DNA of 64,000 nt, taken from assembly GCA_029856145.1 (NCBI GenBank), contig JAHQWK010000004.1:160001-224000 (forward strand). Reading direction: 5' to 3'. Origin of the DNA: Promethearchaeia archaeon (lineage in GTDB: Archaea > Asgardarchaeota > Lokiarchaeia > Sigyniarchaeales > SOKP01). The notes beneath the pieces are model-generated. The model saw nothing but the letters and a program-made list of their open reading frames with translations. It did no database searches and was not told the DNA's origin. Shown in pieces: positions 11,074 to 28,764 of the stretch (the stretch's first letter is position 1; each line of letters begins with the position of its first letter). The translations under genes and the position numbers were made by a program.

Positions 11074-12120
11074 CTAAATAAGATTCTTTTTTTTTATAAT
11101 TTTATAATACTTATCACGTTCTTGGCGTATAAGTTTTATTTCTTCTCTTAAATCTGTTAATTCTCGTTTAATATTCTCCTTTTCATTATTTACACCCAAG
11201 ATCCTATCGTTCAATTTCTTAATTTCGATTTCTAAATTCGGAACTGATTCACTGTCTCTTTTTGCTTTTAGTACTTGAAATTTTAACTTTTTATTAGTTT
11301 CATTCAATTTTTCAATTTCATGATTTAAGGTATCGTTTTCCATCTTAATTTTTTTAATTTCTGTTAGTAGTTGTTCAGCACCTTTTTCGATTTCATCTGT
11401 ATCACCTAATTTTGCTTTTAAGTTATTAATTCGTTCATCTTTCTGGTCCAATGCTAATTTTTGTACATTTAATAATCTAGTTGATTCTCTATTTTTTGAT
11501 GTTAAAGTGGCGTTATATTCATTTAAATCTGCCATTTGGTTACTCCAATTTTCTAATTTTGAATATAATCCAGTTACCTCATTTTTTAAAGCTTCAACGT
11601 TTCTTAAATGTTCAGATCTGTCAGAAACTAACATAGAAACTTTTTGAGCAAGATCATTAATTTTTCCTTTCTTTTCTCCTATTTCTTGTTCAAATCCTCG
11701 TCTCTCTTGCCAATAGGCATCGAGTTCACCTTTTTCTAACAACTCGTAGGATTTTGCAAATAGTTCTTTAAACTTTTTTTCCTTTCTTTGAGGTAATAAT
11801 TCAAAAGCAATTCTTCGTACTTGACCCTCAAAATTTTTTGGAAGTATATCCTCATCAGAAAGGAATACTGTAATTACATGATCTCCCTTCCCAATAAAAT
11901 GCTTGGAAGAATGACCCGTAAAAAAACTAGCTACACTAAGATCACGCTTTATTTGCATTTCTAAATAATTGGAACCTGTCCTCACCCTCTTATGTTCCTC
12001 AAAAACAGTCGAAAGCATTGAATCTGTTACTCCTAATTCTTCACAGATATTTTGCGGATATTCAACATCTTTAGTTAATTCTGATTTCTTATCTAGATTT
12101 AAAATCACAATTCCTTTCAA
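11074..12120 (-). CDS. Putative longin/uDENN-like N-terminal domain plus long coiled coil
   Basis: KGIVILNLDKK...VEYP start parallels GLAFFSWDTKMG...KYP of 14333..15658; C-terminal ~200 aa is heptad-rich. Confidence 0.55.
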   Translation of the reverse strand: MKGIVILNLDKKSELTKDVEYPQNICEELGVTDSMLSTVFEEHKRVRTGSNYLEMQIKRDLSVASFFTGHSSKHFIGKGDHVITVFLSDEDILPKNFEGQVRRIAFELLPQRKEKKFKELFAKSYELLEKGELDAYWQERRGFEQEIGEKKGKINDLAQKVSMLVSDRSEHLRNVEALKNEVTGLYSKLENWSNQMADLNEYNATLTSKNRESTRLLNVQKLALDQKDERINNLKAKLGDTDEIEKGAEQLLTEIKKIKMENDTLNHEIEKLNETNKKLKFQVLKAKRDSESVPNLEIEIKKLNDRILGVNNEKENIKRELTDLREEIKLIRQERDKYYKIIKKKNLI

Positions 12121-12265
12121 TTTATATCCCTAATAAGTAATAAATTAGCTAATTCCAAATATGCAAATATAATGTTCACTCTAATATTAATTAAGATTAT
12201 CAAATTTTTTAAAATTGCTATATATCATTAATGCATTTCAAAAAAAAACCACAAACTATTAATCC

Positions 12266-12634
12266 TTACTTTAAGTATGTGTTCACCAATTCTCTAAATT
12301 CATTAACTTTAATTGGTTTAGAGATATATTCATTAAATCCTGCTGATAAAATTCTATCTTTATCACCTTTCATTGCAAAGGAGGTTACTGCAATTATTGG
12401 TATTTCCCTAAATTTCTCAATATTTCGTAGTTCGGTACATATATCAATTCCACTCATTTCTGGAAGTTGGATATCTAAAATAACTAAATCAGGATTCCCA
12501 GTTTTTATTAGTTCTAATCCTAAATCTCCACGTGTTTCTTCAAAAATTTCAACATTCGGTATTAATTTTAAAATTGCTCTAAACAACTTCATGTTTTTTT
12601 CATTATCCTCAATAACATACACATTTCTAGTCAT
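12266..12634 (-). CDS. Single-domain response regulator (CheY/DivK-like)
   Basis: IEDN, LDIQLP (phospho-Asp), AVTS, SKP motifs all intact. Confidence 0.93.
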   Translation of the reverse strand: MTRNVYVIEDNEKNMKLFRAILKLIPNVEIFEETRGDLGLELIKTGNPDLVILDIQLPEMSGIDICTELRNIEKFREIPIIAVTSFAMKGDKDRILSAGFNEYISKPIKVNEFRELVNTYLK

Positions 12635-12798
12635 AAATAATAACCCCGATTCTCTTCTATTGAAATTATTAAATATTTTTTTTTCTAATTTTATTTTAAA
12701 ACCATTTTCTTGAAACGGTTATATAAATCATTTTTGATTTATTATTTAAATCTATTTTTAAAAATATCAAATTGAAGTAGCAAAATCAAAAATAATAA

Positions 12799-14340
12799 TC
12801 ATGATATAAATTTTGCTTTTAATTCTTGAGCAACCTTAGCAATTTTTTTCAGTTCTTCAAAATCTTTCTCTATCATTGATTTCATTATGTCAATCTTGAG
12901 TTTTTTAACTTTTTCAAGGGTTACAGAAAATTCCTTGTTGATATCATCATAGAGTTCATCGATGTTGTTATAAAGAATCTGAGCATGTTCTTTATCCATA
13001 ATCTCAGAGTTAATAATCATGTTTTGATATGAATTATTTAATTCATCTAACCAATTCCTTCCGAGTTCCTTTATTGGGAAAAGATCATCGAGTTTACCCG
13101 TTCTAATCGCTATTTCAAACTTATCTCTATAGTTTTCAAATAACTTCTTAAAATAATTATTGATTTTATTTTCAATAGCTTTTAAGTTAATATTTGGGTT
13201 CATAAAAAGAGTCACTGTATAATTGTCATAACCAAATATATTCATTTTCAAATTACTCCCTTTTAAGCCAAAACCTGTTAAGTTTTGAATGTTTAATTCT
13301 AAGGAAAACTTTTCAAGTGCGCTAATAAACATTGGAATTAATTCAAGATCAACTGGAATTATTGTATCGTCATTTGGCATACTTTGAGAAATAAAGTCTT
13401 TAAGAGCATCATCAAATAATTCAAGCTTTATTAAAGATTTTCCATCCTTATCTGCTATTATTGCTCCTATAATTGACGGTACTACTTCCTTTATTGCTAA
13501 TTTAGTAGGGACTAAACGCCTTTCAGATTTATTAAAAGGAGCAGATGAAAAACTGCTTAATATCTTATTGTATATAACTTTACCTTTATTTGTCAAGCTA
13601 AGAAGGTCTTTATTCTCAACGTGCTTTATTTCAATATGCCCTTTGTTAGCGAGGCTTTCAACAAGATAATTAGTTAATTTTTTAGGATGGTTTAATTTTT
13701 CATGAAGATTTTCTTTAGTAATTACAACTTCTTTATCAATTTGATGTATAAGTTTAATTGATTCATCAACAATATTTAATAGTAAACCTTCATCATCGGG
13801 TATAATATCTTGAAGACAGATTTTCATAATATCAATCAAATTTGAAAAAGTCTGGGTAAAATAATCCCTTTTTAAACTTGTAAATAAAAAATTTATTAAA
13901 TTTTCATTTGGAAATTCAGTTTTGACAAGTGATTTGATTTCCCTAACTTTTTTTTCACTCACTAGATCTATTTTATGTAATAAAACAAAGATATATGTTG
14001 AAGGTGTTATGGTATTCCTTAAATCTATTATTTTTCTTACGAATTTAAAAATTTCATCATAACTAGACACAATATCTATTACAACTAAAATCAGTTTAGT
14101 GCCAATGAAAATTCTTTTTTCATCTGTATCAAGCCATCGCTTATTTTCTTGTCCTGCAAGATCAAATATACCAACGTCTTGATTTAAACTAGGCAATCTC
14201 ATTATTAATGATTCTTCACCGTAGGTTGGTTCTAATGCATATTCTAATAATTTTGTTGAACTTTCACCTTCAAAAAAGACCTTACGGAGCGTTGTTTTTC
14301 CTGCACCGGGAGGTCCTACAAAGATAATTTTTTCACTCAT
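12799..14340 (-). CDS. Rag/Gtr-like GTPase + winged helix + roadblock/longin-like domain
   Basis: GPPGAGKTT, LEPT, DLAGQ, HKID, TSL; wHTH-like LVESLANKGHIE...LSLTNKG; AIIADKDG...LIPMFISALEKFS. ATG at 14340 overlaps the upstream stop (ATGAGTGA). Confidence 0.8.
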   Translation of the reverse strand: MSEKIIFVGPPGAGKTTLRKVFFEGESSTKLLEYALEPTYGEESLIMRLPSLNQDVGIFDLAGQENKRWLDTDEKRIFIGTKLILVVIDIVSSYDEIFKFVRKIIDLRNTITPSTYIFVLLHKIDLVSEKKVREIKSLVKTEFPNENLINFLFTSLKRDYFTQTFSNLIDIMKICLQDIIPDDEGLLLNIVDESIKLIHQIDKEVVITKENLHEKLNHPKKLTNYLVESLANKGHIEIKHVENKDLLSLTNKGKVIYNKILSSFSSAPFNKSERRLVPTKLAIKEVVPSIIGAIIADKDGKSLIKLELFDDALKDFISQSMPNDDTIIPVDLELIPMFISALEKFSLELNIQNLTGFGLKGSNLKMNIFGYDNYTVTLFMNPNINLKAIENKINNYFKKLFENYRDKFEIAIRTGKLDDLFPIKELGRNWLDELNNSYQNMIINSEIMDKEHAQILYNNIDELYDDINKEFSVTLEKVKKLKIDIMKSMIEKDFEELKKIAKVAQELKAKFIS

Positions 14341-15658
14341 TTTTATCAAGCAGTTTTTTTTTCAAATAGTAAACATTTTTTAGTTTTAATCTAATTTGAC
14401 CAATTATCCATATTAGTTTATTTGCACTAAGGGTCTCAGAAAGGCAAATTAAATTTTTAAGACTAAATTTTTTGTAATTCAAGCTATTCATAATGATATT
14501 AAAATTAGAACTTGAGAGGATTAAATGCTCAATTTTATCATTCATAGCCATGTTTTCAAAAGTTTTATTCAACTGTGTTATAAGTCTATGCGAATGATTA
14601 ATAATCACTGTATTAAAATCTTTAGACATCGATTGTACTATTATATTATCATTTAAGTTAGTTATAAAAAACATTGTTTTAGAAAAATCTCCAATTATAT
14701 CATCCAATATCTTTTTTAGATATATATTTTCTTTAGAAAAACCACTTAATAGTTCATAAAATGCGTTGTATAGGCTGTATATTAATTTTGGATAAATGCT
14801 TGTGTAATAAATAGAAATGTCAAATTTTCTTTTTATTTCATTAGTAATTTCCTTTAGAATCTTTCGTCTAGACTCCTTTCCAATCAGATCTATTTTATGA
14901 ATAAAAAGGATTACCTTGGCACTATAGGATTTATTAGTCATAATATCTCTAACTTTTTGGATATCATCTACAATTTGTTGGGAGTTAGAAACCCAAGTTG
15001 GATAATCGAATAGATATATAATAATATCAGTATTTTCAAATGCTAAGATATGATCACTATCATTTTCATTTTCCAGTAAATAACTTAACTCTTGTCCAGA
15101 AGAATCAAATAATCCTAATTTTAAATCCAACCATGAGTAGACAGATGGTGATATTCCACGTGTTGGTTCTAAAGGATTATATAATAAATCCTTGGGATTA
15201 TATCCTTCAAAAACAATTTTCTTAATACTTGTTTTTCCCGTACTAGCTCTTCCTATTAATAAGAATTTTTTTGTTGACGATTCTTCAAAAAAGGTGCCAA
15301 TTCTTTCCATAAAATATTTTTTTCTGTCATCCCTGGTTTTTTGTAAAGCTTTTTTTGAAAAATCAATAAATTTAGCTTTCAATGTATAAAGGTTAATCTT
15401 TTCCTTTTCATCAAGAATAATTACAAATATTTCATATCCTACATCCGTAACTTTAGATTTATCACAAAAACTCAGAATGGTTTGATCTTCATATGTAATC
15501 TCAATAATTTCGTCTTTAGTAAAATCTTCTTCATATGAATGAGTCATATATATTTTATTAATTAATTCATCTGTTAATTTTAAATCTAAAGGATATTTCA
15601 TCTCAAGTGTAGCACCCATCTTTGTATCCCAACTGAAGAATGCTAATCCTATAATCAT
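14333..15658 (-). CDS. uDENN/longin domain + Rag/Gtr-like GTPase + roadblock-like C-terminal domain
   Basis: MIIGLAFFSWDTKMGATLEMKYP N-terminus; GRASTGKTS, LEPTRG, DSSGQ, HKID, TSIY. ATG at 15658 follows a GGTGAT SD. Confidence 0.8.
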   Translation of the reverse strand: MIIGLAFFSWDTKMGATLEMKYPLDLKLTDELINKIYMTHSYEEDFTKDEIIEITYEDQTILSFCDKSKVTDVGYEIFVIILDEKEKINLYTLKAKFIDFSKKALQKTRDDRKKYFMERIGTFFEESSTKKFLLIGRASTGKTSIKKIVFEGYNPKDLLYNPLEPTRGISPSVYSWLDLKLGLFDSSGQELSYLLENENDSDHILAFENTDIIIYLFDYPTWVSNSQQIVDDIQKVRDIMTNKSYSAKVILFIHKIDLIGKESRRKILKEITNEIKRKFDISIYYTSIYPKLIYSLYNAFYELLSGFSKENIYLKKILDDIIGDFSKTMFFITNLNDNIIVQSMSKDFNTVIINHSHRLITQLNKTFENMAMNDKIEHLILSSSNFNIIMNSLNYKKFSLKNLICLSETLSANKLIWIIGQIRLKLKNVYYLKKKLLDKNE

Positions 15659-15668
15659 GTTTAAATTA

Positions 15669-17804
15669 TCACCTATTTTTTTCCTCAAATTTTTTAGATA
15701 TACTAAAAGTAAATGTAGATCCCATACCTAAAACACTTGTGAAGGTAATTTCACCACTATGTAATTCAATAAGCCTTTTAGTTAATGACAATCCGAGTCC
15801 AGTTCCAGGCACAGATCGTACATATGTGGAATTAACTCTTTTAAATTCTTTAAAGATTAAAGGAAAATCTTTGCGTGCTATTCCTATCCCTGTGTCTCTT
15901 ACTTTAAAAACCCATTGATTATACCCTTCTTTAACTATTAATTCAACTTGCCCTTCAATCGTAAATTTAATAGCATTACTTACCAAATTCAATAAAATTT
16001 CCTTAAATCTAATAGGATCAGCAAATATAAATTTTTCTTCTTTTAATCCTTTAATCTTGAATTTTAAATCTTTTTTACTATATAAAGGTTTTAGACTGGA
16101 TTTAATTTGATCTATCATAGGGTTCAAAGGAAACTTCTGAATATTTAAGGAGATCTGTCCAGATTCAATTTTAGAGATATCCAATATATGTTTGATCATA
16201 TCAAATTGATGTTCAGCCGAACTTTTAATATCTGTTATAAATTCCTTTTGTTCCTCATTCAATTGCCCATAAACTCCTTCTAAAAGCAAATCAGCGAATC
16301 CAATTATAGCATTCAACGGAGTTCTTAATTCATGCGACATAGTAGCCATAAATTCTGTTTTGAACTGTGATGATTTTACAATTTGATCTAAATAATATTT
16401 CTGTTGTTCAAGGGCTTCATTTAATTCTCTTGTTCGAATTTGAACTTCGGTTTCTAATTCATCTTTAAATTTATGTTCTAAAAGCTCTACCTTCTTTTTT
16501 TCAGTAATGTCTTCAAAAATCAGTTGAATTAAAGTTTTAGCATCCTGCTTTATGACAGATGCTTGAATTTCAACCCACAATAAATCTCCTTTAAAAGTTT
16601 TAACTTTGACTTCTATAGGTTCAGGAAAATCTTTTAAAAAAGAGGTTTTGAAAATTTGTTTAAAATATTTTTTAATTTCTATATGAAAAATATTATTATA
16701 AGCATCAATGGATTTTCCAATGATATCACTTCGATCCAAACCGAATAAAACTTCTGTTGTAGGATTAGAATCTACAATAATACCATTCAAATCAATAATA
16801 AATATTGCATTAGGAGAATTATCAAATAAAGCCTTATATCTCTCTTCAGCTAATTTGCGCTCATTAATATTCCTTGAAATTATCAAGCCTTTCAATTCTT
16901 TATCTCTATCAATAATAATCTGTCCACTACACTCAAACCAGAGCCAATATCCCTCCTTATGCTTAAATCGTAATTCAATCACAGATTCTCCTGGTTGAAA
17001 TCCTTTCTTAAAAGTATTAACGGCTCGTTCAACATCCTCCGGATGAATATATTCTAGAGCAGAGTTTCCTATAACATCCTTCTTTCGATATCCTAATAAT
17101 CTGAAGACAGTTTCTTCATTTAAATATTCGAATTTAATTTTACGGTCAATTATAACTATGAGATCATTAATGTTTTCAATAATAAGACGATATTTTTCTT
17201 CAGATTCTTTTAACAGATTTTCCATTTTACTTCGTTCTAAGGCATTTCCAATAATTTGTGATGATATGCGTAAAGGTGACAAATCACTCTCTTTCCATTC
17301 TTTTTGTATTGAATCATTTGCATACCCTATAAATCCAGCTAAATCTGTTTTAATATAAAGTGGGAATACTAATAAAGATCTAATATTATTAAGGTTCAAT
17401 AATCTTTTTGTAGCTTTAGCTTCATCTGGTAAACTTGAAGCATCATAAACATTAATTATATTTCCCCTTCTAAGTTGCTCGTTCCACCATGGAAAACTAT
17501 GAACCCATGAATTTTCAAAGTATTGAAATAGTGGATTTATTCCTTCTGTACACCATTCATATGTGTGATTTAAATTAATTCTGTTATCATTAAAAATACA
17601 CAAAACAACACGACTAGCTCCACTTAAAATTCCTATATCACGTAGTGTAGCATTAATTGCATCATTAATTTCTATATTTCCAAGAAAACGGGAGGATATT
17701 GTATAGGCTAAAACCTCTAAACTTGACCAGTTCTTAAATATTCTATCTGCTTCTTTAACTAAATTTTTTTCAGTCCCTGAAATTTCTTTTTCTCCTAAAA
17801 ACAC
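15669..17804 (-). CDS. Cytoplasmic sensor histidine kinase GAF-PAS-PAS-HisKA-HATPase
   Basis: HTYEWC GAF, IHPED PAS, MSHELRTPLN, NLVSNAIKF, DTGIGI, GTGLGL. Confidence 0.93.
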   Translation of the reverse strand: MFLGEKEISGTEKNLVKEADRIFKNWSSLEVLAYTISSRFLGNIEINDAINATLRDIGILSGASRVVLCIFNDNRINLNHTYEWCTEGINPLFQYFENSWVHSFPWWNEQLRRGNIINVYDASSLPDEAKATKRLLNLNNIRSLLVFPLYIKTDLAGFIGYANDSIQKEWKESDLSPLRISSQIIGNALERSKMENLLKESEEKYRLIIENINDLIVIIDRKIKFEYLNEETVFRLLGYRKKDVIGNSALEYIHPEDVERAVNTFKKGFQPGESVIELRFKHKEGYWLWFECSGQIIIDRDKELKGLIISRNINERKLAEERYKALFDNSPNAIFIIDLNGIIVDSNPTTEVLFGLDRSDIIGKSIDAYNNIFHIEIKKYFKQIFKTSFLKDFPEPIEVKVKTFKGDLLWVEIQASVIKQDAKTLIQLIFEDITEKKKVELLEHKFKDELETEVQIRTRELNEALEQQKYYLDQIVKSSQFKTEFMATMSHELRTPLNAIIGFADLLLEGVYGQLNEEQKEFITDIKSSAEHQFDMIKHILDISKIESGQISLNIQKFPLNPMIDQIKSSLKPLYSKKDLKFKIKGLKEEKFIFADPIRFKEILLNLVSNAIKFTIEGQVELIVKEGYNQWVFKVRDTGIGIARKDFPLIFKEFKRVNSTYVRSVPGTGLGLSLTKRLIELHSGEITFTSVLGMGSTFTFSISKKFEEKNR

Positions 17805-17840
17805 GTTTTTAATTTTTCCTCATTTAATTTTCATTTTATA

Positions 17841-20768
17841 TCATAAATATTTTAATAATTCTTCTACTCTAAGACTGTTTGTTATCTTTTTAGGGATATA
17901 AAAAGAAAATGTTGATCCCATCCCTAATTTACTTGTAAAAGAAATATTTCCACCATGTAAATTAATAATTCTCTTGGTTAGAGACAATCCTAAGCCTGAA
18001 CCTGGCATAGAATCAACATATGGAAATTTTACCCTTTTAAAATCTTTAAATATAATGTTAAGATCTTCTTTAGCAATTCCTATTCCTGTATCTTTTACAT
18101 TAAATTCCCAATTATCTTTTTTATCTATAAATTCAAATGTAACAGTCCCCCTTTCAGTAAACTTTATGGCATTACTTAGTAGATTATAAATAATTTGTTT
18201 AAATTTAAGTCGATCAGCTAATATAATCTGTTTTTTTTTCACATCTTTTAATTCAATCTTTAAATCCTTTTTGCTATATAGGGATTTTAAAGTTGAGATT
18301 ACTTGATTAACTAGATCATATAATTGGATATTGTCAATTTTTACAGAAACTTGCCCCGATTCAATCTTTGATATATCTAGGATATTTGATATCATATCCA
18401 ATAAATGTTTTGATGATTCTTCAATATCTTTAATGAATTCTAATTGTTCTGAATTTAATTGACCGTAAACTCCTTCCAGGAGCAAATCCGTAAAACCAAT
18501 AATGGCATTTAATGGGGTTCTTAATTCGTGAGACATAGTTGCTAAAAATTCTGTTTTAAAATGAGATGCTTTTAAAATCTGATCTAAATACAGTTTTTGT
18601 TGGTCAAGCGCAACTTTCAATTCTTTGGTTCTCAGTTTAACTTCCCTTTCTAATTCTTGACTAAACTTCTTTCTTAAAGCTTCTGCTCTCTTTCTTTCGC
18701 TGACATCCCGGAAAAAACCTTTAAAACCAATTATTTCTCCATTAGAATTATATCTTAAATATACAGAAGTTTCTTGATATATTCTGTCCCCATCTTTTCT
18801 TATAACTTGAGAATTAATTAATTTGAATCCTTCTCCTTTCTTATATAAATCATTATATACACGAAATACTCTCTCTTTGGTTTCTTCATCAAACACCATG
18901 CTATAACTCTTATTTAATAATTCTTCACGTGAATACCCGCTACTCTTACATAACGCATCATTGAAAAATGTGAAATTCCCTTCAAGATCAACTTCAAAAT
19001 ATCCTTCATTAATATTTTCAAGCACACTTCTATATTTTTCTTCTGACTCACTTAATTTTTGTTCAGCTTTCTTACGTTCGGTAACATCTACAAGTGCAGC
19101 CAAAATTGCGTCTTTTCCTTGATATTGGATAGTTTTAGAATAGGTGTCCATCCATTTTATTTCACCATTTTTAGTAAAAATCCTATACATTCTGTCGAAT
19201 TTCTCATCAATCAATCCTTTTTGTCTATGGCTCAATCGTTTTATAATAAGACCTCTATCCTCAGGATGAACAACATTGAGAAATTCTTTCATGGACCATT
19301 CTTTTATTTCTTTTTCAGAATATCCCAACATTTTCGTAATGGTTTTATTTATATATTGGATACTAGAATCCTTTATTATACAAATCCCCATAAAAGATTG
19401 TTCGGTGATCTCTCTAAAGTTTTCTTCAGATTCTTTTAAGCGTTGTTCTGATAATTTTCGCTCGGTTATATCTCTTGAGACTGTTATTGCTCTTAATTGA
19501 TCATCAGACCCCTTAAAGACTGATCCCGTTGTATCTACCCAGATATAATTTCCATTTCTGTGTCGAAGTCTTAATTCACCCCTTCCTCTGCCCCTTTTAA
19601 AACTCTCTCTTATTATTTTTAAAGCTCGCTTAATATCATCTGGATGGATAATATCATGTCGGGTCTTTCCTAACATATCTTTATTATTATATCCTAAAAT
19701 TCTTTGATATGTATTTTCATTTATATATTCATGTTCATATTTACTATTTAGAACCACAATTAAGTCATTGGCATTTTCAGTAATTAAACGATACTTCTCT
19801 TCTGATTCTTTTAACTTTTTTTCGATTTCAGCTTTTTCTGTAAGATCATTATAAATGGCAACAATCTCCCCAGAAGGAAGTTTATATACGTAGTTTTCCC
19901 TCCAACCAGCGATTCTCTCGTCCTGGTAAAGAGAAATAGGGTGATATAATGGTTCTCCTGTCTTCCACACCCTTTGAAAAACTTCAAAAAGACCAAATTC
20001 TTTTATACTTGGAAAGATTTTTGTGACTTTTTTACCAATAACCTCTTTTTTCTTAATCTTTTCTATTTTTTGAGCTGCTAAATTTAAATCTTTAAAAATA
20101 AAGGCTTCACCATTATGAATCGCCTTATATACTGCTACACCACTACTCATTGTGTTAAAAAGTTCTCGATATCTTTTTTCAGATTCTTTTAATATATCTT
20201 CAGTTAGTTTTCTCTCAATTGCGTTTCCAATTATTCGTGAAGAAATTTGCAATAGATTTAAATCCTCTTCTACCCAATTTCTCAACTCTAAATCATCATC
20301 GAATCCTATAAATCCTCCAATTTCACCATTGATATACAAAGGAATAGTTATGTTAGCTTTTACTCCATGATTTTTCAATAAATTTTTAATATTTTTAGCT
20401 TCTGGTGGAAGTCTTGAAACATCTTCAATAATTAGTGGGTTTCCTTTAAGAAGTTGTTTTATTACCCATGGAACTTCGTTCAATTGCAAGTGTTTATAAT
20501 CATTAATATGAGATTCTGCATTCACATTACACCATTCATGAGTATTTATCATATATGGTTTTTCTTTATTAAAGAGGAAAATGAAAACCCTACTGGCATG
20601 TATAAATTCCCCCATATCAGCAAGCGATTTATTTATAACTTTATCAAGTTCATAATTTCCAACAAATCGGGAAGAAATCGATGAAACTAGTTTCTCAAAC
20701 CTTAGTTTTCTTGTAATTGATATATCTTCTTTCACTTGTGTAGTTTTATCTCTCAAATTAGACACCAT
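17841..20768 (-). CDS. Cytoplasmic sensor histidine kinase GAF-(PAS)x4-HisKA-HATPase
   Basis: NTHEWC GAF, four ESEEKYR/DITE-bounded PAS units, MSHELRTPLN, NLLSNAIKF, DTGIGI, GSGLGL. Confidence 0.93.
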   Translation of the reverse strand: MVSNLRDKTTQVKEDISITRKLRFEKLVSSISSRFVGNYELDKVINKSLADMGEFIHASRVFIFLFNKEKPYMINTHEWCNVNAESHINDYKHLQLNEVPWVIKQLLKGNPLIIEDVSRLPPEAKNIKNLLKNHGVKANITIPLYINGEIGGFIGFDDDLELRNWVEEDLNLLQISSRIIGNAIERKLTEDILKESEKRYRELFNTMSSGVAVYKAIHNGEAFIFKDLNLAAQKIEKIKKKEVIGKKVTKIFPSIKEFGLFEVFQRVWKTGEPLYHPISLYQDERIAGWRENYVYKLPSGEIVAIYNDLTEKAEIEKKLKESEEKYRLITENANDLIVVLNSKYEHEYINENTYQRILGYNNKDMLGKTRHDIIHPDDIKRALKIIRESFKRGRGRGELRLRHRNGNYIWVDTTGSVFKGSDDQLRAITVSRDITERKLSEQRLKESEENFREITEQSFMGICIIKDSSIQYINKTITKMLGYSEKEIKEWSMKEFLNVVHPEDRGLIIKRLSHRQKGLIDEKFDRMYRIFTKNGEIKWMDTYSKTIQYQGKDAILAALVDVTERKKAEQKLSESEEKYRSVLENINEGYFEVDLEGNFTFFNDALCKSSGYSREELLNKSYSMVFDEETKERVFRVYNDLYKKGEGFKLINSQVIRKDGDRIYQETSVYLRYNSNGEIIGFKGFFRDVSERKRAEALRKKFSQELEREVKLRTKELKVALDQQKLYLDQILKASHFKTEFLATMSHELRTPLNAIIGFTDLLLEGVYGQLNSEQLEFIKDIEESSKHLLDMISNILDISKIESGQVSVKIDNIQLYDLVNQVISTLKSLYSKKDLKIELKDVKKKQIILADRLKFKQIIYNLLSNAIKFTERGTVTFEFIDKKDNWEFNVKDTGIGIAKEDLNIIFKDFKRVKFPYVDSMPGSGLGLSLTKRIINLHGGNISFTSKLGMGSTFSFYIPKKITNSLRVEELLKYL

Positions 20769-20823
20769 TTTATCTCCTCAATCTTCAACCCAAATTTGAT
20801 GAAATGATTAATTTTTATTTAAC

Positions 20824-21705
20824 TTAATCTTCTTTCTCCTTAAGATAGAGAAAAATATTAAAAAATTCAATCTCTTTATTGAAATGTGAATTTTCCATAT
20901 TAATACAATCTCTTTCTAATCCAATTTTAAAATAATATGCTCTATTAGTTAATTTAAAGAAGTCGTATTCATCAAAACTTTCTACAACACCTAATTTCTC
21001 TAACTCTTCTATATAGAGTTTGGCCTTTTTAGAATTGATTTTAAATTTTTGAGATACATCATCGATACTATACTTTACATTAATATCGGATTTTAATATC
21101 ATAGATAATTGGTTTTTCAGCTTTTGAAATTCTTCACTCTTGATTGGAATTTTATTTCTTTTAATAATTAAATTTAAAATTTCTGAAATTATACAAAAGG
21201 TATTATAAAAGTTGTCTTTTGTAATAGATGTTTGATATATCTCAAAATCCTTACCTTGTGGATGTTGAATTGTAATGAACTCTTGGATAGTCTTTAATTT
21301 ACTACATACATAGGCATTACTCCTAAGATCTATTTTATGTAAAAAAGCAATAATATTACATGAATGAAGGTGAAGATCTTTTTTCACTTTATATATATTG
21401 ATTAAAAATTTAATTATAGATTCTAATGAATTTCCAATGTCAAAAACACAAATTATGATATTACTTTCACTAAATACATCTTTCCCTTTATCTGAAAACC
21501 AAGTTTCATTTTCTTGTCCTGCTAAATCAAAGACTCCTAAATCAGTATTAGATGTTGTATAAATTCTAGAGCTAATCCCTCTTGATGGTTGCAAAGGTTC
21601 TTCTAAAAGTGAAATTGGGCTCACTTGATCGAAATAGACTTTCTGGAGTGTTGTTTTTCCTACTCCAGATGGACCAACAAGAACAATTTTTTTTCTACTT
21701 ATCAA
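20824..21705 (-). CDS. Rag/Gtr-like GTPase with C-terminal winged helix
   Basis: GPSGVGKTT, DLAGQ, HKID, TSI; C-terminal SIDDVSQKFKIN...YIEELEKLGVV...FKLTNRA. Confidence 0.8.
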   Translation of the reverse strand: MISRKKIVLVGPSGVGKTTLQKVYFDQVSPISLLEEPLQPSRGISSRIYTTSNTDLGVFDLAGQENETWFSDKGKDVFSESNIIICVFDIGNSLESIIKFLINIYKVKKDLHLHSCNIIAFLHKIDLRSNAYVCSKLKTIQEFITIQHPQGKDFEIYQTSITKDNFYNTFCIISEILNLIIKRNKIPIKSEEFQKLKNQLSMILKSDINVKYSIDDVSQKFKINSKKAKLYIEELEKLGVVESFDEYDFFKLTNRAYYFKIGLERDCINMENSHFNKEIEFFNIFLYLKEKED

Positions 21706-21740
21706 AGGTATTAACCGATTTTTAAATAAATTTGTATTAT

Positions 21741-22424
21741 TTATTGCATGGAATTTTTTAGATATTTTTCTAGAGATATAATTATATCTTTACATGATTC
21801 TAACATCATTTCTATAAAATTTATTAAATTCTCATTTGATAGACTTTTATTTTCCTTTTTATCTTCTAAAATTAAATCACAAAATCCTTGAATTGTATTA
21901 ATACCACTACGAATTTGTAGATTAAATCTTTCTAATGGAAGAATTTCATTTTTTTTTATATAGATATAGCTTAATTCTTTAAAAAAACTCTCAAATACAT
22001 TTTTATCATCTGATAATATTTTATCTTCACCAATTTTACGAAACATCATTTCAATTTTTCTAAAATGTATTATAGGAATTAAAGGATATTCGATATCACG
22101 AAGTAAAATGATAGAATATAATTGCTTTCCACCTCGAGCATTATTATCTTCGACTTCGATTTTATAGATTTGAGAATAGAAATAATTAAAATCTAAAATT
22201 ACAAATTGATTTTTTGTATTTAAAGCATCTCTTAGAAGATTTCTAATAAAATGTTTCTGTCTTTCAATATTGACTGACGTGTATATAGCTCTTGGTCCTA
22301 GGGTATGATCATATTTACCAATAATTATTATGAAAGGATTTTTTTCTAAAATTGATTGAAAATTCTTATAAGTATCCGAAATTTCATTTTCTATGGATTC
22401 TTTTGTTAAATTTTTTTCTATCAT
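21741..22424 (-). CDS. uDENN/longin-like domain fused to a degenerate His-less HisKA/DHp helix pair
   Basis: IIIGKYDHTLGPRAIY; ARGGKQLYSIILL; C-terminal LQIRSGINTIQGFCDLILE aligns to SHELRTPLNAIIGFADLLLE of the neighbouring kinase. Confidence 0.65.
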   Translation of the reverse strand: MIEKNLTKESIENEISDTYKNFQSILEKNPFIIIIGKYDHTLGPRAIYTSVNIERQKHFIRNLLRDALNTKNQFVILDFNYFYSQIYKIEVEDNNARGGKQLYSIILLRDIEYPLIPIIHFRKIEMMFRKIGEDKILSDDKNVFESFFKELSYIYIKKNEILPLERFNLQIRSGINTIQGFCDLILEDKKENKSLSNENLINFIEMMLESCKDIIISLEKYLKNSMQ

Positions 22425-22658
22425 AAAATTTCCTCATTTCTGAATAAATATTTCTTATCTATATCATTTTCAGAATAATACAATAGAGATTTTTGAATTA
22501 AAATTTTAAATTAATATACACTAAAATAGATACTAATTTGGTATAATAGTAACAAATTTTATTTATTAATTTATTTATTTTACTAAATAATTATTATTCA
22601 GTACAAAAAAATGATAATTTAGTAAAAATTTATAAAACAATAAAATTATTAGTAAAAT

Positions 22659-24158
22659 ATGTCAGAATCTGCAAAAACAATCATAAAATATTTCTGTGAT
22701 CGATTTCTTGACTTAGATTATTATCCAACTAATTTAAAAACCATATTAGATTTGGAATTAGATAAATTACGAAGTATAAAAGATGATGAAATAGAGAAAT
22801 TTAAAAAAATCGATATCGTGAGTCTACGCGACCTTACTAAACTAGAGGATTATGGATTTGAAAATTTGATTGAAAAACTGCATATTGAAAAATCAACTAT
22901 AAAAAATGCTCTTATCGCATCAACTCTTATATCTAACGCTTGGAATAAAAGGAATTTATATCTGAAAAAACAAAAATTGAAGGTTGTAGTGGCTGGTCTT
23001 GATTTCGCGGGTAAAACATCTCTCATAAATAGATTGATTAATGATTATAATTATAATGATATGGCTAATCTAGAACCCACAATAGGAGCAAATGTAGAGG
23101 AATATCAATCTGATAAATTAGATTTAATTCTCTGGGACCTTGGAGGACAGAAAGATCATGTAGACGAATATCTTGCTTCTCCAGAAAGTTTTTTTATAAA
23201 CGTAGATATCATGATATTTGTAATTGATTCACAAGATGATGTTAGATATTTAGAAGCTGTAAACTTTTTGAATGATATAATTGATATTCTCAAATTCTTG
23301 AAAGAGAATCCTTTTATTGTAGTTTTATTGAATAAAGCAGATTTAGATATCAGAAAAGATCCTGATTTTCAAATTAAGCTTGAATATCTAGCAGATAAAA
23401 TTTCAGAGATTTTTAAAAAATCTGAAAATCCTTGGAATTTTGAGATCATTCCCACAAGTATTTATAATTATTATTCTAATCAACCAGAAATAGTTAAAAG
23501 TATTAAAAATATCTTTTCAAAAGGAAAAGAGGAGACAGATAAAGAGATTGTGATACCTGACATTGAAGAAAAATTTCAGAAAATTTTAGATCTTAATCTG
23601 AAATTGATGGATAAATTCGTATCTGAGCTTGCGGAAATTAAACGAGCTTTACTACGATTAAATCCATCAGATATAACTCAATCTCTTTTTTCAGTTCCTT
23701 TCAAAAAAGTACAACCAGATTATATATCTCCAGACTTAAAATCAAATGGAAAAAGTAAAAAAAAGAAGAAGAAAGCTAAAATTGATGAATTTCAAAAAAA
23801 GAAAAAAACTAAAAAAGGTTCAGGACCTCCAAAACCACTGCCAACACACCCTTCTTTAAAAATAGAAGAAGAAAAAATAGTTAAAAACGAAAAACTCACA
23901 ACTAAGAAATTAGAAAAAGTTAAATCTTCTTTAAAATCAAAATCTCAATTATCTAAGATGTCATCTAGTCCACCAACAGCTCCACTAACAACACCTAAAC
24001 AGGATGAAATCAACTTAAATTCGCTTAAACCTCCACCTCCCCCTCCAAGAATTTCAACAAGTGGCAATATTAGATCAACCTCACCTAGAGGTGAAGTCCT
24101 TTCAGAATTAAAAGAAATGTTCTTGAAGCGAGGCTTAGTCAATCGTTATGACTTCTAA
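22659..24158 (+). CDS. Arf-like small GTPase with N-terminal helical domain and C-terminal basic, proline-rich and WH2-like tail
   Basis: GLDFAGKTS, EPTIG, WDLGGQ, NKAD; tail KSKKKKKK...PPPPPP...RGEVLSELKEMFLKRG. Confidence 0.8.
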   Translation: MSESAKTIIKYFCDRFLDLDYYPTNLKTILDLELDKLRSIKDDEIEKFKKIDIVSLRDLTKLEDYGFENLIEKLHIEKSTIKNALIASTLISNAWNKRNLYLKKQKLKVVVAGLDFAGKTSLINRLINDYNYNDMANLEPTIGANVEEYQSDKLDLILWDLGGQKDHVDEYLASPESFFINVDIMIFVIDSQDDVRYLEAVNFLNDIIDILKFLKENPFIVVLLNKADLDIRKDPDFQIKLEYLADKISEIFKKSENPWNFEIIPTSIYNYYSNQPEIVKSIKNIFSKGKEETDKEIVIPDIEEKFQKILDLNLKLMDKFVSELAEIKRALLRLNPSDITQSLFSVPFKKVQPDYISPDLKSNGKSKKKKKKAKIDEFQKKKKTKKGSGPPKPLPTHPSLKIEEEKIVKNEKLTTKKLEKVKSSLKSKSQLSKMSSSPPTAPLTTPKQDEINLNSLKPPPPPPRISTSGNIRSTSPRGEVLSELKEMFLKRGLVNRYDF

Positions 24159-24363
24159 TTAAGTTTATTGATTAAAATAGCTGTATAAGATTTATGTCTT
24201 ATCTTAATACTAACAATGAAATTTCTCACAATCAGAGATATGATATTTATAATTCTTTAGAATTATTTGATCAATTTTAAATATTTATTAGTGTAAAATT
24301 CAACTAAAGAATAGAATAAAAAAATGAATTATTGGATAATTTTCTAATCAAAGGTGAAAGTTC

Positions 24364-25227
24364 ATGTCGAATAGTGACAAAAAAACAAAGGAAATGGAAC
24401 AATATGAGCAAGAGACTGGAAAACAAGCAATTTGGCAGGGAAAAACCACTAAGGGATTCCTAAGATGGAAAAAAGGTGAAAAAAATTATTATGCTGATAA
24501 AAAAAGAATTTCCGTTTATGTATCAAGTGAAACTGAAAGGAATTGGAAGGAATATATTAACACACATAAAATTACTTCATTTTCTAAACTAATTAGAGAA
24601 AGCGTTAATTATTATATTAAAGAAAGATCTAAATTTGGTGGAAATTTATTTCCGGATTTAGAAACTAGTACTAAATCTAAAATGACTCACACTTTGAAAG
24701 AAAAGCTAACAACGATAAAAGGATTTTCGCAATTATTACTTGAAAAATATAGTGGGAATTTAAATGATGAAATAAAAACGATTATTAATAATGTCTTGAA
24801 GGAAACTAAACAATTGGAAAATAAATTCATAGTTCAATTAGAAGAAAAAGAATTTAAACCTTCACAATATGATATTTTACTCATTGAAGATAATTTGTCT
24901 ACTATAGATTTATTGAAAAATTATTTTGAAAGCAAGGGGTATTCTTTTAAAGGAGTATTAACAGGTTTGGAAGGAATTGAAGAACTATCCTCGTCTACTC
25001 CAAAATTAATATTGCTGGATATAATTTTACCAGATGTTAGTGGATATGATATTTGTAAGGACATAAAATCTAATATGAATTTAAAAGAAATACCTGTATT
25101 TTACTTAACTGCTTTACCCGGTATTAACGTAGAGAATAAAATAGAAGAAACAATGGCAGATGGTTTTATTTTAAAACCTTTTGATTTACTAGATTTAGAA
25201 TTTTTATTTGATTATCTCCAAACTTAG
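24364..25227 (+). CDS. Ribbon-helix-helix + HisKA/DHp (no ATPase domain) + receiver protein
   Basis: KKRISVYVS...FSKLIRESVNYYI (RHH-like); THTLKEKLTTIKGFSQLL (H-box-like); IEDN, LDIILPD, LTA, KPF (REC). Confidence 0.75.
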   Translation: MSNSDKKTKEMEQYEQETGKQAIWQGKTTKGFLRWKKGEKNYYADKKRISVYVSSETERNWKEYINTHKITSFSKLIRESVNYYIKERSKFGGNLFPDLETSTKSKMTHTLKEKLTTIKGFSQLLLEKYSGNLNDEIKTIINNVLKETKQLENKFIVQLEEKEFKPSQYDILLIEDNLSTIDLLKNYFESKGYSFKGVLTGLEGIEELSSSTPKLILLDIILPDVSGYDICKDIKSNMNLKEIPVFYLTALPGINVENKIEETMADGFILKPFDLLDLEFLFDYLQT

Positions 25228-25763
25228 CACAAATAGCATTTAAGTCAATTAATTACTTGTTTTAAACATAGTTGTCATTACTTATAATTGGAAGTGAAAT
25301 TTAAATCTAATTCTCCAACCACATTTGAGATATTATTTATTATATATTGATATCTCATTTCGGAATCATGTAATACATTTTCAATTTCAGTCAATTTTTA
25401 TACAACCCTTTTAATTTTTAAGAAGATTAGTAAATTAAGAATTAAATCGTCTTTTTTTTAGTAATTTACGTTATTTTTAATCCTAATCTTTTACCCAATT
25501 TTGAAGTAAGTTAACTTTTTATTTAATAAATTCGATGATAATGTTGAAACTAGATCATAGGCATATTTTTTTGCACTACTAAACTTGATTTAGGTAACCT
25601 TAAAAATAAAAAATTTTATCTCTAGTGTAAATATTAAAAAATTTTGCATCTGATTCAACTTGATAATAATCACTATAATTTCGAGAATTTCAAAGTGTAA
25701 TCGATCATACTTTATTATGTAAAGTGTTACGCAATTATTAAAAGAAAAGAGTATGAATTTAAC

Positions 25764-26714
25764 ATGCCGGAAAAAATAACTTTGATAGGAAGAGCGGGGG
25801 TTGGAAAAACAAGTATACTTAGAGTATTATTCGAAGGAGAATATTCTAAAGATCTTATGATTAATCCGCTTGAACCTACACGTGGTATAATACCTAAGAT
25901 TTATTCATGGATGGACATAGAATTAAGTATTTTTGACACTTCCGGACAAGAATTACCATTTCTGTTAGAGGATGAGAATGAACAGATGATCGCCTTTGAT
26001 AAGGTTGCTATTGTTATCTACATCTTTGATTATCCAAATTGGATAAATCAATCTCAAGATATTGTTAATGAAATAAACATGGTATTCAAAATATTAAAAC
26101 TTAAAAATATTGAAAATAATCTTGTATTAATCTTTCATAAGATTGATTTAATAAAACAAAAAGCTAGTGTTAATTACCAGTTAATGAAAAGTGGAATTAA
26201 AGAACGATTAAATCTCCCAAAAAATATACCTCTTTACCTTACAAGTATATCTCCAGAATTAGATTTCACATCATATAATGCTTTTTCTGAGATATTGAGT
26301 AGTTTATCACAAGATTCCAATAATTTAAAGTTAATTGTTGATGAAAAGATCAGGTTTCTCTCAGAATCGATCTGTTTTATTACTAATAAAGAGAATTTTA
26401 TAATAGTTCAATCAATTACACAAGATTTCAATACAGATTTAATTTATAAATTATATATTTTGGTTTCCTATTATGTAAAATCTATTTCTACAAATAGTGA
26501 TTTTGAAAATGTTATTCATTCAATTGATTCAACGACCCTTACTTTAAGCTTAATTGTTAGTAATCTTGAAAATTTAAATCCAAATCTTAAAAACTTAGTT
26601 TTAATATCGGATACTAATAACAAAGATGATTTATTCAAGGTAAAGGAAAATATAAAGTTAGAGATTGAAAAATATTATGATTCTGCTGATAATAAAAATA
26701 TCAAAAAGAAATAA
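25764..26714 (+). CDS. Rag/Gtr-like GTPase with roadblock-like C-terminal domain
   Basis: GRAGVGKTS, LEPTRG, DTSGQ, HKID, TSI; collinear with the GTPase part of 14333..15658. Confidence 0.82.
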   Translation: MPEKITLIGRAGVGKTSILRVLFEGEYSKDLMINPLEPTRGIIPKIYSWMDIELSIFDTSGQELPFLLEDENEQMIAFDKVAIVIYIFDYPNWINQSQDIVNEINMVFKILKLKNIENNLVLIFHKIDLIKQKASVNYQLMKSGIKERLNLPKNIPLYLTSISPELDFTSYNAFSEILSSLSQDSNNLKLIVDEKIRFLSESICFITNKENFIIVQSITQDFNTDLIYKLYILVSYYVKSISTNSDFENVIHSIDSTTLTLSLIVSNLENLNPNLKNLVLISDTNNKDDLFKVKENIKLEIEKYYDSADNKNIKKK

Positions 26715-26813
26715 CAACTGAAAATCACTATATTTTCTTAGGTAATTTCTATTCTAATTCTGAAAATTGTTAAGGAATATTAAACATAATATATTTCTAT
26801 TAAGATCCTTCAT

Positions 26814-27103
26814 TTAAGTGTAAATATGTGAAAAAGTCTCTACAGTTTTTACAATATCTGTAGCTAAATAATTTTACTTAAACACTGAAGCAAAGAAAGC
26901 ACGATCTCTTGGGTTGAAATAATTATACCCAAACTTTTTCCATTCAATACTGACTTGTAAAGGGGCAAAAAGAGAAATCTGATCTTTCATTAAATTCATC
27001 AATAATAAGTTTCTCTCTTGCAGAGTATTATTAGATATAGTATTTAATAAAATACATTCACTAAAAAAATCCCAAGAATCCTTAAATTGAATACAGAATT
27101 TTT
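26814..27103 (-). pseudogene. Degenerate copy of the 3' end of the amidohydrolase gene (29574..29863)
   Basis: Ungapped nucleotide similarity at offset 2760 (taaatatgtgaaaaagt..., tagctaaataatt..., cattcaatact...); CAG>TAA premature stop at 26874-26876. Confidence 0.9.
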
Positions 27104-27105
27104 AT

Positions 27106-27201
27106 ATAGAAGGAAGGAGAAAAGGATTATTATTATATTGATAATAAAAGAAATTCTGGCTCTGTATCAAGTGAAACTGAAAAGAATTGGTAGAAATTTA
27201 T
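27106..27201 (+). pseudogene. Relic fragment of the RHH-DHp-REC gene (about 24463..24556)
   Basis: tgtatcaagtgaaactgaaaagaattgg versus tgtatcaagtgaaactgaaaggaattgg; the following AAG has become TAG. Confidence 0.75.
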
Positions 27202-27210
27202 GAATTATTT

Positions 27211-28764
27211 TTATTGTCCCTTTATATCATCATCTATATTCTTTATAATTGGTAGTGAAAAATGGAATATACTTCCTTTATTTTTACCTTTTGATTCAAC
27301 CCATATCTTCCCTCCATGTAAATCTATAATCTCTTTTGAGAAATATAGCCCTAATCCAATCCCATCAGAAATTATGTCCCAACCTTTTCCATATCTCTCA
27401 ATCTTTCCAAACGGTCTAAATAATTGTTCTATTTCTTTTTTCTGTAAACCTATTCCATTATCTTTAATAGAGATTATTATAGATTTTTTATTGATTCGAG
27501 ATTGAATAGTAATATTACCTTCTTTAGGTGTAAATTTAATTGCATTCTGTAAGAGATTTATAAATACGCTATAAATTTTATTTTTATCAAAATCTATAAA
27601 TAGTTTATCATGAATATCTATAATTAATGTGTGTTTTCTTAATTTAATCAATCCCTCCATCTCTGCTATACTCTCTTTAATTAAATCATGTAGATTTTCC
27701 CGATTTAAATTTAATTCTATTAACTGCCTATCTAACATTATACATTCTATGAAATGATCTATAAGTAATTTCAGCTTATCTGCTCCTTTATCGATCTTCT
27801 TCAAAGATGATATTGTATCATTATCTAGATTTTTCCTAGTCTCTGTTAGTAAAAATTTAGAAAATCCCTTAATAGATATGAGAGGTGTTTTGAACTCATG
27901 TGAAAACCTTGTTAATAAATTTGATTTCATTTCTTCCATCTCTTTTCTTTCAGTAATATCTTGCACCCATAATCTTAGAGTCGCCAAAGATCCATCATCT
28001 TGATAATGAGGTAAGATTTTTCCTGATAACCAAATAATTCTCCCTTCTTTGTTAATTATTTTAAACTCTATATTTCTTTCATCAAATAATTTTTTAATAT
28101 TATGAATATCTTCTGGATATACCGCTTTATAAAAAACTCCTTCATTTTTTAGTTCTTCTTGGGTATAACCAATAATCTCTAACAATCTAGGATTAATATA
28201 AATAACTCCTCCTTTTGTAGAATCAATCTCCAATAACCCCATTGAAGATGTTTCGATTAAATTCCGATATTTTTTTTCCGATTCTTTTAATTTTTGCTCG
28301 GCTTTCTTATGTTCGGTAATGTCTCTTAAGAATCCTTTATATCCGATTTTTTCTCCCTTAATATTGTATCTTAAATAATCAGAGGAATCAACAAATAATT
28401 TTTTCCCATTCTTTGTGATAATTTCATATTCACCTGAATTAAATCCTTTTCCTGCTTTATATAGGTTGTTAAACCCACTTAATACTTTCTTTCTAGTTTC
28501 TTCATCGTATAATTGACTATATTTCATATTCATTAAGTCTTCATTTGTATAACCAGTACACTCTCGTATTACGTTATTGCAATAAGTAAAATTACCTTTA
28601 AGATCAAGTTCAAAATAACCATCCTTAAGAATTTCTATTATATTCTTATATTTTTCTTCTAATTTTTTAATGGATTCTTCTAATTCTTTTATTTGTATAA
28701 GTAAATAATTGCTATCCCTTTCATATTCGTTCTTATTTTTTTCTAAATCTTGTTTAAAATGAAT
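27211..28764 (-). CDS. PAS-PAS-HisKA-HATPase histidine kinase with probable ATT start
   Basis: FSHEFKTPL, NLLQNAIKF, DNGIGL, GIGLGL. The frame stays open 77 codons upstream of ATG 28533 and encodes the first half of PAS1 (LEEKYKNIIEILKDGYFELDLKGNFTYCN), back to ATT 28764 placed 8 nt after GAGGT. Confidence 0.85.
   Translation of the reverse strand: MHFKQDLEKNKNEYERDSNYLLIQIKELEESIKKLEEKYKNIIEILKDGYFELDLKGNFTYCNNVIRECTGYTNEDLMNMKYSQLYDEETRKKVLSGFNNLYKAGKGFNSGEYEIITKNGKKLFVDSSDYLRYNIKGEKIGYKGFLRDITEHKKAEQKLKESEKKYRNLIETSSMGLLEIDSTKGGVIYINPRLLEIIGYTQEELKNEGVFYKAVYPEDIHNIKKLFDERNIEFKIINKEGRIIWLSGKILPHYQDDGSLATLRLWVQDITERKEMEEMKSNLLTRFSHEFKTPLISIKGFSKFLLTETRKNLDNDTISSLKKIDKGADKLKLLIDHFIECIMLDRQLIELNLNRENLHDLIKESIAEMEGLIKLRKHTLIIDIHDKLFIDFDKNKIYSVFINLLQNAIKFTPKEGNITIQSRINKKSIIISIKDNGIGLQKKEIEQLFRPFGKIERYGKGWDIISDGIGLGLYFSKEIIDLHGGKIWVESKGKNKGSIFHFSLPIIKNIDDDIKGQ

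Follow-up and report, generated by a model that had tools for sequence, protein, structure and literature searches.

A Lokiarchaeial gene module that unites two-component proteins with Rag- and Arf-like GTPases, and a longin-hairpin protein as candidate coupling component

Coupling of histidine kinases to small GTPases is known among prokaryotes from the actinobacterial conservons (AGPS, CvnA-D), in which a histidine kinase, a small GTPase and regulators of the GTPase-activating protein (GAP) or guanine nucleotide exchange factor (GEF) type are encoded in one cluster (PMC13343842, PMC13621833). Liu et al. 2020 (bioRxiv 10.1101/2020.10.19.343400), in the parts of that preprint covered here, report that fusions of NPRL2-like longins to two-component domains are common in Asgard archaea, describe an operon of a roadblock protein, a Rab-like GTPase and a DENN protein, and surmise that Asgard growth regulation centres on two-component systems with eukaryote-like regulators. 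The GTPase genes of P. syntrophicum MK-D1 are generally without operon links to regulators (Tran et al. 2024, PMC10933270). The locus treated here lies at positions 11,074 to 28,764 of a 64,000-nucleotide stretch, the window (contig JAHQWK010000004.1, positions 160,001 to 224,000, GenBank assembly GCA_029856145.1), from the 3.55-Mb, 97%-complete genome of a Promethearchaeia archaeon, whose close homologues carry the labels Promethearchaeota/Lokiarchaeota, and its twelve open reading frames (ORFs) are labelled A (11074) to L (28764) by position. It brings together two-component proteins (B, E, F, J and L), Rag-like GTPases (C, D, G and K), an Arf/Rag-like GTPase (I) and the longin protein H. 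Its core is a real and conserved module, apparently vertically inherited and repeatedly lost in one Lokiarchaeia order, whose two-component and GTPase genes very probably form one functional unit with a joint function.

Conservons differ from this island in having an MglB-type roadblock protein, one Ras-like GTPase per four-gene operon and no cognate receiver among the core genes, whereas the island combines three to five multidomain Rag/ArfR GTPases with canonical HisKA kinases, a receiver and a longin. The conservon Ras-like GTPase belongs to the MglA group. No stand-alone roadblock gene and no CvnC-type gene is found among the twelve ORFs, and the island is thus an analogue that works alike rather than a member of the conservons. 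The covered parts of Liu et al. contain no cluster of kinase, receiver and Rag-like GTPase, no His-less DHp and no co-occurrence analysis, and the GTPase of the operon described there is not a Rag. A literature search of incomplete coverage found no paper on this cluster or on the LokiRag structures (LokiRagO, PDB 8yl2; LokiRagM, PDB 8zla); by that search the module is unpublished, and it would couple kinases to GTPases by means of eukaryote-like components. MK-D1 has an orthologous cluster, with WP_147663508.1 as its H, which is there an exception to the general lack of operon links between GTPases and regulators.

H resembles, in fold and GP motif, the eukaryotic longin proteins FLCN:FNIP, NPRL2:NPRL3 and SMCR8:C9orf72 and their Asgard look-alikes (PMC12290439, PMC9473554, PMC8213707). 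A GP motif and an Arg finger mark the GAP-type longins (PMC12290439), and the longin dimers of FLCN:FNIP2 and SMCR8:C9orf72 act as GAP or scaffold for a GTPase. Like the eukaryotic longin GAPs, H has the (Y/W)D-x-x-x-GP spacing and a conserved loop Arg, and Rag- and Arf-type GTPases adjoin it; unlike them it carries a pseudo-DHp in place of a DENN or NPRL2 C-terminal domain, its putative partner longin is fused to a GTPase, there is no lysosome, no TOR-type kinase was found, and its GAP role is a predicted one. The other half of H recalls Caulobacter DivL, where a DHp without the phosphorylated His is reused to sense a phosphorylated single-domain receiver via the docking surface (PMC4211667). 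H differs from DivL in that only the hairpin is present, joined to a longin. DivL itself retains PAS and ATPase-like domains, and its target is the kinase CckA.

The evidence for a common function comes from clustering, synteny and co-inheritance. The genome encodes about 23 kinases and 19 receivers, and its strong Rag/Arf-like loci number about 18; six of these 18 have a kinase within 5 kb as against 0.97 expected (P=0.0003), five of these six being the present cluster, and a grouping of five of the 18 within 18 kb occurred in 0 of 20,000 random placements, a null that ignores tandem duplication. In the surroundings of H at 32 loci from three families, with MK-D1 among the genomes, a Rag/ArfR-type GTPase neighbours H at every locus and a kinase at 28, the remaining four being short contigs or a contig end. 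I is present at 27 of these loci, G at 22, D at 21, B at 18, C at 16, J at 13, A at 4 and K at none; among the loci fetched, K adjoins the core only in the present island. Across the three families the genes change order and orientation while the set stays together. In three genera the core has the same flanking genes, in others it occupies unrelated sites, and at one locus (L027) it lies inside a ribosomal-protein region. A preliminary description of this DNA had envisaged a co-located and co-transcribed island: co-location is conserved across the three families, but co-transcription as one operon is not conserved across loci, and the single co-directional run seen in this genome is particular to its lineage. 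Only in part of this genus does the D-C pair point the same way as the kinases; in most other genera it is inverted, divergent from B.

Co-inheritance was followed in 68 genomes of the family, 28 with an intact H and 40 without. D occurs in 26 of the 28 and in 1 of the 40, C in 24 and 1, and I in 24 and 0, so that I is found only in H-positive genomes (24/24); the receiver B is present in 27 of 27 D-positive genomes and in 1 of 41 D-negative ones. K-like genes also occur in genomes without the module. Within a genus some genomes have the module and others do not (9 of 40 have it in this genus, 9 of 15 in another), and one genome (G024) retains only head-to-head stubs of H and I of 70-74 aa and is without B, C and D, which is consistent with loss as a unit; mixed presence and stubs together suggest that such loss was repeated. 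Among 301 Asgard genomes H was found in 29, all of one order.

The AlphaFold2 (AF2) model of H, with a predicted local distance difference test (pLDDT) of 85, has two parts, a longin at residues 29-160 and a hairpin of helices at 162-226. It is matched best by NPRL2 (Z 12.5, root-mean-square deviation (rmsd) 3.0 over 131), a Loki longin (Z 12.2), FLCN (Z 11.8, rmsd 2.9 over 129) and chain S of the yeast SEA complex (Z 11.5); the modelled longin fold is closest to NPRL2/FLCN, in line with the preliminary description. D39, G43, P44 and G98 are present in 96 of 96 homologues and R97 in 95, and of 15 distinct family members, with identities as low as ~20%, 12 retain the RG pair. In the model G43-P44, a GAP-type GP motif, precedes strand 43-49, and R97 lies in the loop between strands 82-92 and 100-110 (strands 4 and 5), inside the segment matched by Pfam Folliculin; Y38-D39...G43-P44 has the same spacing as W33-D34...G38-P39 of C9orf72. 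The Folliculin family matches 95 of 96 H-family members at E<=0.05 (best 3.8e-5). No link between the H longin and the longins of D or A was found by hhalign, and these are thus distant longin types; ESM Atlas searches with H, with the tail of I and with the C-terminal part of C returned only their own clusters or low scores. From motifs and model, it is possible rather than probable that H is a real Arg-finger GAP. A further fusion of longin and two-component domains is encoded elsewhere in the same genome (C9:42774-43934, L154), where a degenerate receiver and then a zinc ribbon come after an H-like longin.

In the hairpin the His position is occupied by Leu169, and by Leu, Met or Val in 94 of 96 homologues, while R172, T177, G180 and F181 are invariant. 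The hairpin matches the DHp of HK853 (Z 8.7, rmsd 1.4 over 65), with many generic hairpins matching as well, and hhalign relates it to the DHp of the neighbouring kinases with prob 83. Its residues at +7, +11, +12 and +15 are N, G, F and L, the same as in the two kinases HK1 (E) and HK2 (F) and in none of the 13 other H-boxes listed for the genome, and the same code is shared by hairpin and kinase at most loci. These positions face the receiver in HisKA kinases. H keeps the receiver-docking residues of HK1 and HK2 as a conserved surface, on which a receiver may dock. Some distant members of the H family have His at the H-box position, and the hairpin thus derives from a true DHp. These His-keeping relatives (L042:1902-2528; P0249, P0264, P0265, P0270), of which L042 and P0249 are without the Arg and the P0270 group keeps both residues, are suggested by their sequences to be phosphorylatable longin-DHp proteins. 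In another relative (L116:683-1849; P0252, P0253) a PAS-like domain is N-terminal to the H-type longin-hairpin; this gene is divergent from a C-like GTPase and stands beside genes resembling CRISPR-associated ones.

On the two-component side, Pfam finds HisKA, HATPase and PAS domains in E, F and L, with GAF above the cut-off in HK2 and weak in HK1; all three kinases have intact H-boxes and HATPase domains, and B and J have intact receivers. Asp54 and Lys106 of the B receiver are invariant, and B has no output domain. Orthologues of E are 55-80% identical and adjoin H or D, and the sensor part of F varies between genomes. L has a possible ATT start at 28764 after GAGGT, as the preliminary description had proposed, and its H-box code differs from that of HK1 and HK2. 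The HisKA match of J is weak by Pfam, although its DHp is found by hhalign (prob 97) and His109 is retained; its ribbon-helix-helix (RHH) domain is seen by inspection only, and J has paralogues elsewhere in the genome.

These features would fit a mechanism in which the soluble PAS/GAF two-component system and the Rag/ArfR-type GTPases work together, with H as the most likely physical link, a proposal that comes close to being probable. HK1 and HK2, from their domains, would sense cytoplasmic cues and may phosphorylate B. The His-less hairpin of H would then dimerise and, by its docking surface, either dock B or pair with a kinase hairpin, on the model of the DivL pseudokinase that senses DivK~P. 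The longin of H may form a homodimer or join the longin of D, which bears the WD motif, and, judging by motifs and fold, serve one of the GTPases of the module as a GAP or scaffold in the manner of FLCN/SMCR8. Most speculatively, the winged helices of C and G, the proline-rich tail of I, or both would convey the state of the GTPase. A signalling direction from kinase to GTPase is something that we infer. The whole chain, with phosphorylation controlling GAP activity, is unlikely to hold in full, and it is likewise doubtful that H is a folliculin-like Arg-finger GAP on a co-encoded Rag/ArfR GTPase that is switched by a phosphorylated receiver on its His-less hairpin.

A number of points weigh against this mechanism. 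Activity, binding and wiring of the proteins are predicted from sequence and models. The match of H to Pfam Folliculin (20.5 bits) is below the cut-off of 23.3, and sequence searches of the PDB with H, as a profile or with the Arg loop alone, gave no alignment to FLCN or NPRL2; R97, which we take to be the equivalent of FLCN R164 from its loop position in the model, the Pfam segment and the FLCN motif, is not aligned with it residue by residue. Many soluble kinases share the N-x-I-I-G-F H-box, and inheritance, rather than selection for docking, could account for it. A complex model of an H dimer with D, GTP and Mg scores 0.43 against 0.00 for the best control; of 80 solved pairs 58 reach the mark for such scores, as do 2 of 110 mismatched ones, only seven solved pairs and both mismatches lie above it at scores of 0.60 or less, and the model speaks for an H-D complex, but weakly, and gives no interface. 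Its runs agree in at least 85% of contacts with a partner pLDDT of at least 81, and likeness to solved FLCN/GATOR1-Rag complexes may contribute to the score. One genus is without C and several loci are without G, D of MK-D1 is only ~25% identical, and the synteny and co-occurrence counts overstate independence, as the compared genomes are related and incomplete and the H-positive ones partly hand-picked. Taken with the evidence above, sequence and models leave binding of H to both the two-component and the GTPase side a serious possibility that we rate slightly below an even chance.

The alternative that survives best, itself rather unlikely, is that the two sets of genes are co-regulated but not wired to each other: they would serve the same physiological state, being clustered and lost together, and the hairpin of H would only dimerise a longin GAP or scaffold. 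GAP longins do act as dimers (PMC8213707), and a DHp hairpin lends itself to dimerisation; there are moreover other clusters of signalling genes in this genome, and the lack of a conserved operon fits as well. Co-regulation leaves unexplained, however, that the hairpin surface at +8, +11 and +12 is invariant, which is more than dimerisation needs, that B tracks D almost perfectly, and that distant H-family members keep the His.

Reversal of the flow is improbable too. The GTPase would here bind the H longin in a nucleotide-dependent manner, H would regulate HK1 and HK2 by forming hairpin heterodimers or by sequestering B, and the phosphorelay would be the output. The kinases already carry GAF/PAS sensors, the putative output domains (winged helix-turn-helix (wHTH) domains and polyproline tail) are on the GTPases, and the presence of the Arg and the GP motif speaks for an action of H on a GTPase, beyond a mere reading of its state. 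Yet a His-less hairpin whose docking code equals that of HK1 and HK2 can poison or buffer kinase dimers, the receiver B ends without an output domain, and eukaryote-like sensors that feed two-component growth control in Asgards are what Liu et al. 2020 propose in the parts covered here.

For the GTPases C, D, G and K, Gtr1_RagA is the best Pfam family (52-88 bits, cut-off 22). G4 is HKID in all four and G5 is TSL, TSI, TSI and TSI, so that the HKxD and TS[IL] motifs named in the preliminary description are indeed there; both also occur in many other Asgard Rag/ArfR-like paralogues. Of the earlier domain calls, those of Rag, Arf, kinase and receiver domains are borne out by Pfam, whereas the uDENN assigned to D is a bare longin and the roadblock assigned to C is longin-like. 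D, which probably starts at ATG 15658, has in its AF2 model (pLDDT 86) an N-terminal five-stranded plain longin with no DENN core, bearing a W-D-x-x-x-G motif without the following proline. The top structural matches of the D model are RagA, Gtr1, RagD and LokiRagO, aligned through the C-terminal domain (to residue 430), and its sequence matches are all Rag/Gtr, as are the best PDB matches. K is a paralogue of D without the longin, and its roadblock-type domain is homologous to that of D; profile, PDB matches and fold show D and K to be Rag-like up to and including the roadblock domain, and D has the two-domain Rag fold. A longin-GTPase-roadblock architecture has been reported from MK-D1 (PMC10933270). 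G is without a roadblock domain. The winged helices of C and G are homologous (hhalign prob 91), and wHTH families are matched in orthologues. C probably starts at ATG 14340; its third domain shows the element order of a longin, has an hhalign prob of 0.1 with the roadblock of D and a weak match (E 0.002) to the longin of D, and its profile retrieves small stand-alone proteins of Pfam Fuz_longin_1, one of them above the cut-off. Searches of PDB and Pfam with the alignment of this domain gave no match, and the longin call rests on the transitive matches; the domain thus looks longin-like and not like a roadblock. A 260-aa protein encoded at C26:66244-67026 of the same genome (L153) is homologous to the longin-like C-terminal half of C and has no GTPase.

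The HKxD G4 and the GTPase-plus-roadblock fold of D and K are shared with eukaryotic Rag/Gtr proteins, but the island GTPases, with their wHTH fusions, make up a Loki clade of their own. In a tree of 89 sequences rooted on Rab-like proteins, with a comparison set chosen as best Gtr1 matches and a eukaryotic set of nine RagA/Gtr1 sequences, obtained by scanning metagenomes for a motif and lacking RagC/Gtr2 and Arf, C, G, D and K form one Loki-specific clade (98/87) in which G is the sister clade of C, and eukaryotic RagA/Gtr1 group with different Asgard proteins, including one on contig C29 of the same genome (97/90). Thus the best tree separates the island from RagA; forcing the island and RagA to be monophyletic costs 25 log units and is not rejected by the approximately unbiased (AU) test (p=0.064). 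Yeast Gtr1 has four matches at E<=1e-12 in the genome, all outside the island. The most RagA-like GTPase of the genome (144 bits; C29:71279-73371) adjoins a gene with a D-type longin and is a better candidate for studies of Rag ancestry than the island GTPases. No PI3K/TOR-type kinase domain was found in the 97%-complete genome. Given the separate Loki clade and the search that found no TOR-type kinase, the "proto-Rag" module of the preliminary description, as a direct precursor of RagA/C-Ragulator-TORC1, is overstated, and direct ancestry of the Rag-TORC1 pathway is unlikely.

An orthologous precursor of the eukaryotic Rag-Ragulator-GATOR1/FLCN pathway, with C and D as a RagA/RagC-like heterodimer, is accordingly very improbable. 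It would account for the Rag folds and PDB matches of D and K, for the adjacency of D and C in most genomes, for the likeness of H to NPRL2/FLCN and for the AU result, but it meets the grouping of RagA/Gtr1 and of the yeast Gtr1 matches with paralogues outside the island, the longin-like third domain of C, the confinement of H to one order, the missing PI3K/TOR kinase and the lack of a stand-alone roadblock gene in the island.

The GTPase I is narrowly closest to Arf by Pfam (82 bits, as against 78 for Gtr1_RagA); its PDB matches are LokiRagO first and then Arl3, and in the tree it falls with other Arf-like Loki paralogues. It has a helical N-terminal domain and a tail (23740-24158) consisting of a basic patch, polyproline runs and an amphipathic helix, R-x-x-[VI]-x-x-E-L-[KR]-x-x-F-x-x-[RK], that is conserved down to MK-D1. 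No WH2 Pfam match was found in nine I tails, and a WASP-like reading of the tail, made by eye, thus stays a lead. The longin of A is related to that of D by hhalign (prob 63, E 7e-5). A 378-aa gene inside the MK-D1 cluster was considered as a homologue of A and is not homologous. Genes of this kind in the MK-D1 family (378-389 aa; L038:10984-12120 in MK-D1, L043:6119-7288) resemble DRG/Obg-type GTPases and lie inside the cluster.

Features of the island in the 64-kb window (positions are those of the window; HK, histidine kinase)
Feature	Position	Strand	Predicted product and place in the module	Basis
A	11074..12120	-	longin-like domain (1-138) and long coiled coil; accessory	hhalign, coiled-coil Pfam matches
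B	12266..12634	-	single-domain receiver; core	Response_reg 86 bits
C	12799..14349	-	Rag-like GTPase, winged helix, longin-like domain, helical tail; core	Gtr1_RagA 53 bits
D	14333..15688	-	longin, Rag-like GTPase, roadblock-type C-terminal domain; core	Pfam, AF2 model
E (HK1)	15669..17804	-	soluble GAF-PAS-PAS-HisKA-HATPase; core	Pfam, synteny
F (HK2)	17841..20768	-	soluble GAF-multi-PAS-HisKA-HATPase; core	Pfam, synteny
G	20824..21705	-	Rag-like GTPase, winged helix; usually directly behind H	Gtr1_RagA 57 bits
H	21741..22424	-	FLCN/NPRL2-type longin fused to His-less DHp hairpin; candidate coupling protein	AF2, structural matches
I	22659..24158	+	Arf/Rag-like (Asgard ArfR-type) GTPase; core, divergent from H	Pfam Arf 82 bits
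J	24364..25227	+	putative RHH, DHp, receiver; frequent accessory, partners third kinase	REC 62 bits
K	25764..26714	+	Rag-like GTPase, roadblock-type domain; lineage-specific neighbour	Gtr1_RagA 65 bits
decayed duplicates	26814..27204	-	fragments of ORF 29574-31121 and of J	repeat search
L (HK3)	27211..28764	-	soluble PAS-PAS-HisKA-HATPase; accessory, usually convergent with J	Pfam

All twelve ORFs of the preliminary description were found in the window at the coordinates and on the strands it gave. The minus-strand run from 22424 down to 11074 comprises eight genes with gaps of 35, 55, 36, 10, -8, 164 and 145 nt, no clear transmembrane segment is present in any of the twelve ORFs, and the GC content of the island is unremarkable; a sigma-70 promoter scan is uninformative for an archaeon. 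The segment between K and L contains a 290-nt copy (80%) of the 3' end of a 515-aa ORF (source 29574-29863) and, beside the third kinase, a 76-nt remnant (83%, + strand) of part of J, and these duplicated fragments at the right edge are by their sequence scars of an old duplication or insertion. Chance aggregation or a mobile island of unrelated signalling genes, to which these scars, the patchy distribution and the peripheral position of K, A and probably J and L might point, is hardly credible, as it is largely refuted by synteny and co-occurrence, the set having been retained through rearrangement across three families, and mobility is rejected on the flanks shared in three genera together with the absence of a GC shift. 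Elsewhere in the window, two tandem genes of the metallo-beta-lactamase fold (8934-10941) border the island, a stand-alone Fuz-type longin gene lies directly behind a stand-alone receiver gene (46264-47198), and a roadblock-like domain is fused to a Rab-like GTPase (53429-54412).

The roles and partners of the Asgard Rag/Arf-like GTPases and longins are reported not to be revealed by genome layout (PMC10933270), and the present cluster names candidate cognate sets: kinase and receiver, longin GAP and GTPase, and one protein that would join them. Two published surmises are at stake, one that the longins of Asgards are GAPs, the other that two-component systems hold the place that TOR has in eukaryotes, and these become directly testable with small soluble proteins since an orthologous cluster is present in the cultured MK-D1. 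The restriction of the module to one Loki order makes a parallel elaboration of shared parts more likely than an ancestor of the eukaryotic pathway. Should H indeed be switched by a phosphorylated receiver, the module would constitute a direct relay from a His-Asp phosphorelay to a Rag-family GTPase, and would show which input longin GAPs had before TOR existed; the polyproline tail of I might then provide an output related to actin.

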